Source: a virus
Strand: one strand, 5' to 3'
Virus record (IMG/VR): IMGVR_UViG_3300030102_006261
Span: 1 to 64,000 of that record
Length of the DNA: 64,000 nucleotides
Position 1 is the stretch's first letter. Each line of letters begins with the position of its first letter. The position numbers were made by a program, and so were the translations under genes. Positions 15,066-17,181 of this stretch are shown piece after piece. A model generated the notes under the pieces. That model ran no database searches. It was not told the DNA's origin and worked only from the letters and a program-made list of their open reading frames with translations.

Positions 15066-15123
15066 AATCGGAAGCTGGTTAGATGCAACAGCTACCCCCG
15101 ATTAAATTAATTTTATGCATCTA
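15066..15123 (+). promoter_or_regulatory. Predicted H-type pseudoknot in 5' UTR
   Basis: Stems AATCGG/CCGATT and AGCTG/CAGCT; loop TAGATGCA (15080-87) complementary to TGCATCTA (15116-23). Confidence 0.65.
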
Positions 15124-15142
15124 CTGCAAAGGAGCGTTGGTA

Positions 15143-15412
15143 ATGACCAACACTATGACTAAGAAGCGGCGCGTAATCAACTATCTCGCGTCCGGTAAGG
15201 GCCTCACCGAGGCAGAAGCACGTAGCCGTTTTGGAGTTGCAAACCTCCGTGCTACCATCAGCGACATCCGTGACATGGTTGAAGCTCACGGTAACTGGGA
15301 GATCACCTCGGAGGCTACCTCCACCGGTAAGACCCGTTACTTCATGGAAGACACTCACCCCGGTGAGCGTTCCTACGGTTTCGACAACATGGGTCGTCGA
15401 TTCGCACTCTGA
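15143..15412 (+). CDS. Winged helix-turn-helix protein
   Basis: RVINYL.SGKGLT..EA..RFGV.NL.A.IS.IR; AAGGAG RBS; codon choice like gp23. Confidence 0.75.
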   Translation: MTNTMTKKRRVINYLASGKGLTEAEARSRFGVANLRATISDIRDMVEAHGNWEITSEATSTGKTRYFMEDTHPGERSYGFDNMGRRFAL

Positions 15413-15705: not shown

Positions 15706-15720
15706 ATTTCAATAAAGGGG

Positions 15721-15753
15721 TTGACAAACCCAACAGATCGAGTATAATACTCG
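15721..15753 (+). promoter_or_regulatory. Sigma70-type promoter TTGACA-16-TATAAT with inverted repeat over -10
   Basis: -35 at 15721-26, -10 at 15743-48; CGAGTA-TAA-TACTCG at 15739-15753. Confidence 0.9.
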
Positions 15754-15775
15754 TATGACAATTGAATAATAGAAT

Positions 15776-15991
15776 GAAGAGAGACTAATTACCTCTCTTC
15801 GGGACTCGCATAATAATCCTCTTGACTGGGGATAGTGCAATCTCTGAATGGTTTAGCGACCTGTTCCTTAGCGATGCAGAAATGCTTGCGGGATGATCCT
15901 TAGCGGGATGTGCAGAGATCTCTTAGTAGGGTACACTTCACTCGTACAGTCACCCGAAAAGTTCTGGTAATTACGACAATCCAGAGTCCCA
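15776..15991 (+). ncRNA. Unrecognised highly structured ncRNA (~200 nt) with repeated UUAG(CG) loops
   Basis: Own promoter and terminator, no ORF; nested stems GGGAC/GTCCC, TGACTG/CAGTCA, AGTG/CACT, ATCTCTG/CAGAGAT, TCTGG/CCAGA. Confidence 0.75.
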
Positions 15992-16000
15992 TTGAACGAA

Positions 16001-16040
16001 GCAGGGGCTGGTAGAAATATCAGCCCCTGTCTTTTTTTTT
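16001..16040 (+). terminator. Intrinsic terminator
   Basis: GCAGGGGCTG/CAGCCCCTGT then T9; followed by TATAAATA at 16046-53. Confidence 0.9.
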
Positions 16041-16119
16041 ACTGATATAAATAATTGGGTAAATAGAAAATAATACACAAATGTCTTGTGTAATACTAAA
16101 GAAGATGATACAATAACAA

Positions 16120-16260
16120 ATGAGCGCAAAACATTCAGCCGGAAAGGGTGATAAATATCGCCCAATAGATTATAAAAAGTATGCAGAAAACTATGAAAAG
16201 ATTTTTTCTAAAAAAGTGAAAGGTAGAAAAAATGGAAACCAAGATCGTAAGACTAAGTAG
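16120..16260 (+). CDS. Small basic protein (46 aa)
   Basis: Not in ORF track; MSAKHSAGKGDKYRPIDYKKYAENYEKIF... Confidence 0.55.
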   Translation: MSAKHSAGKGDKYRPIDYKKYAENYEKIFSKKVKGRKNGNQDRKTK

Positions 16261-16812: not shown

Positions 16813-17181
16813 ATGAATCAACGCAAATTTAAAAAACTCGCTGAGATCGCATTGCCCCATGCGCTCCAGAGCAACAGACAAAAGAAACATGTCTCGTTGA
16901 TCATAGTTCGCAATAGGGTAATTTCAGTTGGAACTAATCAACTAAAGTCTCATCCACAAGCGAAGAAGATTGGTTATAGATATGATGAAGTTCATTCGGA
17001 GTTGGACGCACTGCTTCGTTGCAAAGAGAGAAAGAATCTTGAATTGGTTAACTTTAGGTTTAACAGGTTTGGGGATTTTCGTTTATCTCGCCCTTGTTCT
17101 CTTTGTAGCCCATGGTGTAAGATGATGTTTGACAAAATTTACTACACGACCCGTGAGGGTTATGAAAGGTTGGAATTTTAA
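16813..17181 (+). CDS. Cytidine/dCMP deaminase-like zinc enzyme
   Basis: HSELDAL and SRPCSLC zinc motifs. Confidence 0.8.
   Translation: MNQRKFKKLAEIALPHALQSNRQKKHVSLIIVRNRVISVGTNQLKSHPQAKKIGYRYDEVHSELDALLRCKERKNLELVNFRFNRFGDFRLSRPCSLCSPWCKMMFDKIYYTTREGYERLEF

Follow-up and report, generated by a model that had tools for sequence, protein, structure and literature searches.

At the flagged stretch, uncultured marine T4-like phages carry a genuine and strongly conserved gene whose product is a folded RNA. This RNA belongs to a divergent, hitherto unannotated branch of the manA motif class and does not constitute a new family. The window, the whole stretch of 64,000 nucleotides analysed here, is the opening 64 kb of an IMG/VR virus record 142 kb long and encodes T4-type baseplate, sheath, and gp23 proteins; its gp23 is at most ~54% identical to cyanophage gp23, and its sheath protein is ~35% identical to the sheath proteins of phages Melnitz and Mosig. 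A first-pass annotation, made from the sequence alone, had described a consensus promoter, about 250 nt free of ORFs, and a strong terminator, and all three are borne out: both signals are present (Table 1), and the ~250 nt between them contain no conserved ORF. Transcription would start at about position 15755, and the best explanation of the locus is a primary transcript of ~280 nt with a folded core at 15776–15990.

Promoters of the same σ70 type are over-represented in the window, with 6 observed versus 0.8 expected. The leader that follows the promoter is kept even in promoter-less loci (alignments A2 and A3); pairing of this leader with the 3′ tail was considered and rejected, because the alignments, read by eye, show no covariation between them. 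Searches with ARAGORN and Rfam, tRNA and tmRNA models included, identified 4 tRNAs in the window and nothing in 15750–16040. Two further features of the flanks were observed. Both promoter hexamers lie within short inverted repeats, GGGTTGACAAACCC and CGAGTATAATACTCG (window 15716–15757), that are conserved across many homologous loci (alignment A1). Directly past the terminator, 5′ of a 46-aa ORF at 16120, is the sequence TATAAATA (16046–16053, + strand), which we take to be the T4 late-promoter consensus.

Homologues and conserved fold

A blastn search with the window RNA against 50,697 phage records returned no match. Exact-motif scans of IMG/VR identified ~35 loci on viral contigs, and a scan of marine metagenomes, using a pattern from which the UUAGCG loops were left out, identified at least 120 matching contigs. 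A covariance model built from 26 sequences recovered 94 copies at 177–286 bits, 76 of which are unique (alignment A3). Every one of the homologues (>90) lies on a marine viral or metagenomic contig; when 185,579 prokaryote genomes were scanned for 16-mers, 65 matches came up, none with the RNA, consistent with chance. Among loci that are syntenic through a 113-aa neighbour, only L002 and L006 contain the RNA, and five longer related contigs are without it.

The 60 pairs of the proposed fold are paired in 95.4% of the cells of alignment A3, versus 33–50% when the partners are slid, and 28 of the 60 show compensatory change on both sides; the covariation among related sequences that the first-pass annotation had named as a check is thus present. 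Invariant G-U pairs establish that the RNA reads on the + strand. The minimum-free-energy fold of the region has an energy of −94 kcal/mol (z = −3.9). In the conserved fold, P1 closes over P2, P4, and P6, which are interlocked by two loop-loop pseudoknots (PK1 and PK2), and over a four-way junction domain.

Table 1. Elements of the RNA gene, in window coordinates
Element	Position	Strand	Description
σ70 consensus promoter	15721–15748	+	−35 TTGACA 15721–26, −10 TATAAT 15743–48, 16-nt spacer; 12/12 positions match
Conserved 5′ leader	15755–15775	+	GACAAYUGAAUAA
P0 hairpin	15776–15800	+	8-bp stem, 9-nt loop ACUAAUUAC; 8/8 pairs covary
P1, 5′ strand	15801–15805	+	GGGAC, pairs with GUCCC 15986–15990; invariant in 76/76
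P2a and P2 hairpin	15808–15838	+	P2a GCAU 15808–11/GUGC 15835–38, invariant; encloses P2 AUCCU 15816–20/GGGAU 15829–33
PK1, 5′ strand	15823–15828	+	UGACUG, the P2 loop; partner CAGUCA 15947–52; 5/7 pairs covary
P3, four-way junction domain	15840–15919	+	P3 15840–46/15913–19; 7/7 pairs covary
P3a	15850–15861	+	GGU-UUAGCG-ACC, invariant
P3b	15865–15893	+	GNRA loop GAAA 15879–82; tetraloop stem C:G to U:A in 5 sequences
P3c	15896–15909	+	AUCC-UUAGCG-GGAU; ACCC/GGGT version (U:A to C:G) in 18/76
P4	15922–15961	+	CUUAGUAGGGU 15922–32 pairs with ACCCGAAAAG 15952–61; AGUA/GAA internal loop in the window's subgroup
P6 hairpin	15963–15985	+	UCUGG 15963–67/CCAGA 15981–85; loop with PK2 3′ strand UACGA 15972–76
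P1, 3′ strand	15986–15990	+	GUCCC, invariant, followed by a conserved A-U
Intrinsic terminator	16001–16040	+	13-bp stem, GAAA-containing loop, T-run

The earlier proposal of a structured noncoding RNA with its own promoter and terminator, in which stems vary and the loop motif is kept, is supported. In particular, the 5′ hairpin (P0) and the ATCTCTG/CAGAGAT stem (P3) that it had drawn covary at every pair, the GGGAC/GTCCC stem (P1) and the arm GGT-TTAGCG-ACC (P3a) do not vary at all, and the arm ATCC-TTAGCG-GGAT (P3c) occurs in a second, equally paired version. Its TCTGG/CCAGA hairpin (P6) exists in three fully complementary versions, UCAGG/CCUGA (48), UCUGG/CCAGA (25), and UCGGG/CCCGA (2).

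Other parts of that fold are revised. TGACTG and CAGTCA do pair, but not as a nested stem: a covarying hairpin, ATCCT/GGGAT (P2), has TGACTG as its loop and a third pair that occurs in C:G, G:C, or U:A versions, and the pairing of TGACTG with CAGTCA is therefore a pseudoknot, PK1. The proposed AGTG/CACT stem is fully paired in just 9/76 sequences. The proposed fourth arm, CTC-TTAGTA-GGG, forms a hairpin in 18/76, and its 5′ strand instead pairs over a long range, forming P4. The versions of P4 alternate between GGGU/ACCC and GAGU/ACUC, and in the other subgroup P4 is a Watson-Crick helix of 7–9 bp with at least six covarying versions. The apical loop of P4 contains the 3′ strand of PK1 and, immediately before it, the 5′ strand (UCGUA, 15942–46) of a second pseudoknot, PK2, which the earlier fold lacked. 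PK2 covaries at three of its five pairs and occurs as UCGUA/UACGA, UUGUA/UACAA, AUGUA/UACAU, and CUUAC/GUAAG. Since the two strands in the P4 loop are contiguous (UCGUA-CAGUCA), one strand ties P2 to P6. Of the tRNA-like closing domain that had been suggested, the abutment of P6 on P1 holds; the likeness to a tRNA does not, as tRNA and tmRNA models give no match and the P6 loop is engaged in a pseudoknot and is not a T-loop.

The four arms said to display UUAG reduce to two that are conserved, with UUAGCG loops in P3a of 76/76 sequences and in P3c of 74/76; four TTAG motifs occur in 9/76 RNAs and two in 51/76. The P0 loop shows a different pattern. Its core reads AAUU in 46 unique sequences and GAUC in 27, and mixed forms never occur. 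On the core tree the two forms are exchanged about 10 times, with at least 4 switches forced by well-supported branches, and exchange of the loop by recombination is likely because near-identical RNAs differ in the loop allele. The maintained self-complementarity of the loop suggests that two copies of the RNA may pair. A pairing of the P0 loop to either the P6 loop or the UUAG loops was considered and rejected, being inconsistent across variants read by eye.

Relationship to the manA motif class

The first-pass annotation did not recognise a family, and manA was among the families that it listed for checking. In the Rfam search that it had called for, the window RNA and its clade have no hit at E ≤ 10, either to the manA model, RF01745, or to any other model. 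Close homologues from other subgroups match this model over its full length (model positions 1–192) at 43.8–52.5 bits, with E-values of 3e-8 to 7e-13, all of them just below the gathering cut-off of 55.2 bits. The cmscan alignment of one such homologue, L208, places P0, P1, P2, the four-way junction, P4/P5, and P6 in manA register. For comparison, bona fide manA RNAs score 145.6 bits (marine virus AG-345-L05), 141.7 bits (P-TIM40), 123.6 bits (S-SSM7), and 64 bits (Pelagibacter phage Mosig). The reciprocal search, with our model R1, recovers the manA RNAs of S-SSM7 (22.6 bits, E = 7e-6) and P-TIM40 (18.8 bits, E = 8.5e-5), each at full length, in register, and at its annotated place. Because the window's own clade is without an Rfam hit, its membership in the class rests on these intermediates and on shared architecture. 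We hold with high confidence that it is a real RNA of the manA class, and the earlier note had said that a strong hit to a characterised Rfam family would take away the novelty, which largely applies.

The shared architecture is extensive. The order of elements is the same, with a 5′ hairpin, P1, the P2 arm, a four-way junction with a GNRA-capped middle arm, P4/P5, and P6; the P6 loop reads GGUAUACA..AAUCC in both; and both have a promoter directly upstream and are carried by marine T4-like phages. Both also have a loop-loop contact between P5 and P6: in 53 canonical manA sequences from IMG/VR, this contact is CUGU/ACAG in 46/46 and AUGU/ACAU in 7/7, and it matches PK2 of the RNA described here. 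The two pseudoknots common to the manA class are supported by covariation.

The differences are equally specific. P1 is GGGAC/GUCCC here and GGGAG/CUCCC in the Rfam model; the junction is UCGCAUAAUAA here and UGACUGAAUAA in canonical RNAs, with AAUAA alone in common; the 5′ leader is longer here; and the P0 loop has 9 nt here, whereas canonical P0 loops are mostly GACG or contain GAUC. The branch described here is usually followed by a terminator and located within tRNA arrays, not before metabolic genes. The strings GGUUUAGCGACC and GGGACUCGCAUAA do not occur in the manA alignment of Weinberg 2010, which is weak evidence, the file being gapped and partial.

The most distinctive difference concerns the loops of P3a and P3c. 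In canonical RNAs these loops are GUGGUG and ..ACCA, invariant and mutually complementary (GGU/ACC), whereas both are UUAGCG here. Most likely, the twin UUAGCG loops replace the canonical pair as an internal contact, and their positions make a tertiary contact no less likely than display to a protein. Two UUAGCG loops could form only two G-C pairs, flanked by A-G, and their kissing on these two pairs is putative. In a retrovirus, GACG loops form a kissing complex that has two G-C pairs.

Rated a riboswitch candidate in 2010, the manA motif has stayed an orphan, and the present work adds to it a large marine branch, with at least 120 metagenome contigs and ~35 viral contigs, that Rfam-based annotation had missed. 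The branch also supplies natural variants for experiments, such as the swapped loop pair and the AAUU and GAUC forms of the P0 loop.

Genomic setting and possible modes of action

At most loci, the RNA lies inside a tRNA array on the same strand. The upstream neighbour, ~50 nt away, is tRNA-Lys, tRNA-Gly, or tRNA-Gln, and the downstream neighbour, 40–180 nt away, is tRNA-Glu, tRNA-Gln, or tRNA-Gly; small ORFs also occur downstream. A promoter with at most two mismatches is present in 48/76 unique homologous contexts, ending 47–56 nt before P1 in 40 of them, and a terminator is detected in 57/76, its stem beginning 9–15 nt past P1 in 37/49. Canonical manA RNAs have a near-consensus promoter in 58/60 cases and mostly lie 20–60 nt before an ORF, such as talC in P-TIM40 and the rubrerythrin gene in Mosig; some abut a tRNA, e.g. 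tRNA-Gly in S-SSM7.

Several side observations concern these regions. In L142, a full-length tmRNA gene (L142:1370–1712, − strand; RF00023, 150 bits) immediately precedes the manA-like RNA, and short partial tmRNA matches of 32–62 bits occur at L151:417–499, L156:677–760, L164:344–427, and L166:562–645, indicating that these phages carry tmRNA-type genes in the same stable-RNA island. In S-SSM7, the annotated CDS SSSM7_180 (L266:1579–1710; GU071098.1 151441–151572) overlaps the manA RNA and the start of tRNA-Gly, and was probably called as a gene in error. Many canonical manA RNAs are followed, at a distance of 30–90 nt (L280, L282, L284, L291, and L294), by a further conserved hairpin, AGACCUAAGAUGCAACU...GGGCAGAUGGUCUUUUUU, possibly the abiF-like element that has been reported downstream of manA in phage S-CREM1.

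The reading that we favour, tentatively and somewhat short of even confidence once function is included, is that this manA-class RNA works as a free-standing molecule and not in cis. Host RNA polymerase would make the RNA early, and a discrete, stable RNA would accumulate; its folded shape would act on a partner, either a small ligand or a factor of the host or the phage, and not as a switch of one downstream gene; and the P0 loop may let two copies of the RNA pair. Consistent with a free-standing unit are the frequent promoter and terminator, the variable downstream features, the neighbouring stable-RNA genes, and syntenic relatives that are without the RNA and retain the adjacent proteins. 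The terminator also gives no antiterminator signal: the duplex of its 5′ arm and the final 45 nt of the RNA is energetically no more favourable than the duplexes of shuffled arms (median z 0.1; 2/49 below −2; n = 49). This lack of excess complementarity argues against a classical riboswitch platform, as does the spacer of 9–15 nt, which leaves the terminator neither overlapping nor competing with the closing helix. A separate small gene in phage tRNA arrays with a non-overlapping terminator is hard to square with a simple leader riboswitch. Two facts stand against a free-standing unit: the canonical relatives are 5′ leaders, and at no fewer than 20 loci a tRNA gene abuts the terminator-like hairpin.

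The latter loci bear directly on a cis-acting role. In at least 20 cases the tRNA gene begins directly after the hairpin, with no space for a promoter, so read-through from the promoter of the RNA must occur, which fits a promoter-proximal element that controls its own early transcript, through termination resistance or through ligand sensing as in the proposed manA riboswitch, and that sets passage past the hairpin into the tRNA genes. The near-consensus promoter just upstream of members of both branches points the same way, as do the very diverse genes that canonical members precede (talC, rubrerythrin, tRNA-Gly, and tRNA-Asn). HK022 put and EAR RNAs are precedents, making RNA polymerase resistant to termination. 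In addition, manA was rated a riboswitch candidate by Weinberg et al. 2010 (PMC2864571). However, the separate terminator without excess pairing leaves no classical expression platform, the terminators have long stems (in the window, 13 bp followed by a T-run), and no function, ligand, or polymerase contact has been reported for any manA RNA (PMC2864571, PMC9964418). Control in cis is the chief alternative to a free-standing RNA, and we regard it as possible, though rather unlikely. A broader proposal is that the manA class as a whole consists not of riboswitches but of phage RNAs located close to promoters, which act by put-like processive antitermination on the transcription machinery or their own transcript, or of self-pairing stable RNAs; this is speculative, and we consider it unlikely. 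If it were true, the core function of the class would be laid bare by the tRNA-array branch, which has no downstream coding gene and whose P0 loop has switched repeatedly between AAUU and GAUC yet stayed self-complementary.

In the first-pass annotation the RNA had been cast as a multivalent sponge or scaffold whose UUAG(CG) loops would titrate an RNA-binding protein, or else as a decoy aimed at host defence. In favour of this view, tRNA regions of phages have a link to counter-defence, the two UUAGCG loops do sit on covarying or invariant stems, and dimerisation through the P0 loop, if it occurs, would present four of them. Two conserved loops are nevertheless far from the many repeats of CsrB/RsmZ-type RNAs, and they occupy the sites of loops that in canonical RNAs are complementary to each other. 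No co-occurring RNA-binding protein was found, and searches of the neighbouring proteins with Pfam and PHROGs identified no RNA-binding domain. The loops also have no consistent complementarity to phage tRNAs: CGCUAA occurs in none of the tRNAs, and there is no consistent wobble match. Titration or decoy activity is accordingly very doubtful.

A protein partner encoded next to the RNA was likewise sought and rejected, because the winged-helix, 46-aa, 113-aa, basic 45-aa, and deaminase-like neighbours all occur in loci without the RNA. Specifically, the 46-aa protein with the motif HSAGKGDKYRP (16120–16260, + strand) and the 109-aa winged-helix protein HTH_39 (15083–15412, + strand) are found in >60 RNA-bearing loci and in RNA-less relatives too. 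A 122-aa ORF between tRNA-Arg(UCU) and tRNA-Leu(UAA) (window 16813–17181, + strand), with HSE...PCSLC motifs, recurs in many related loci and weakly matches the fold of cytidine/dCMP deaminases (Pfam E = 0.003; PHROG 174 E = 2e-5).

Another explanation treats the RNA as a substrate or mimic of tRNA metabolism, in which the P1/P6 stack imitates an acceptor/T-arm helix and the RNA is excised by tRNA-processing enzymes or occupies a tRNA-binding enzyme or nuclease. The location in a same-strand tRNA array suits it, and the 10-bp stack of P6 on P1, followed by the conserved A-U, resembles the discriminator and trailer of the phage's CCA-less tRNA genes. The stack is nonetheless 10 bp, not 12, and the P6 loop has 10–12 nt that are engaged in PK2; with no match by ARAGORN or the Rfam tRNA and tmRNA models, this explanation appears highly improbable. 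A small protein gene or a DNA-level element in place of an RNA gene can be all but dismissed: a 36–50 codon ORF (MGIVQ...) lies inside the element in about half of the homologues (group 2, e.g. L037:2164–2319, oriented context) and is probably an artefact of RNA conservation, as neither the window nor any other member of its subgroup has it, substitutions in the helices are compensatory rather than synonymous, G-U pairs are strand-specific, and stems vary while loops are fixed.

Other stable RNAs of phages

Besides canonical manA RNAs, two groups of phage RNAs invite comparison. The first comprises T4 rnaC and rnaD (species 1 and 2), which, like the RNA described here, are stable-RNA genes in the tRNA cluster of a T4-type phage and whose function is unknown (PMC3014915, PMC9697503). 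The similar location of rnaC, together with its true T-arm, could be taken to favour a tRNA-like role for the present RNA. However, the canonical T-arm of rnaC, GGUUCGAAUCC, has no counterpart here, and homology is rejected: a filter-free cmsearch of the T4 tRNA region with our covariance model gives at most 7.5 bits, with nothing at rnaC or rnaD. The T4 RNAs and the RNA described here are analogous in location only.

The second group comprises GOLLD, ROOL, and OLE. These RNAs are 3–4 times larger and have unrelated folds, with no Rfam match in the window. Like the present RNA, they are phage-borne, often near tRNA islands, and of unknown function, and kissing loops build their structure, in some cases by self-pairing between copies (Kretsch et al., 10.1101/2024.12.08.627333). 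The self-complementary core of the P0 loop extends this likeness to the RNA described here, for which self-assembly is putative.
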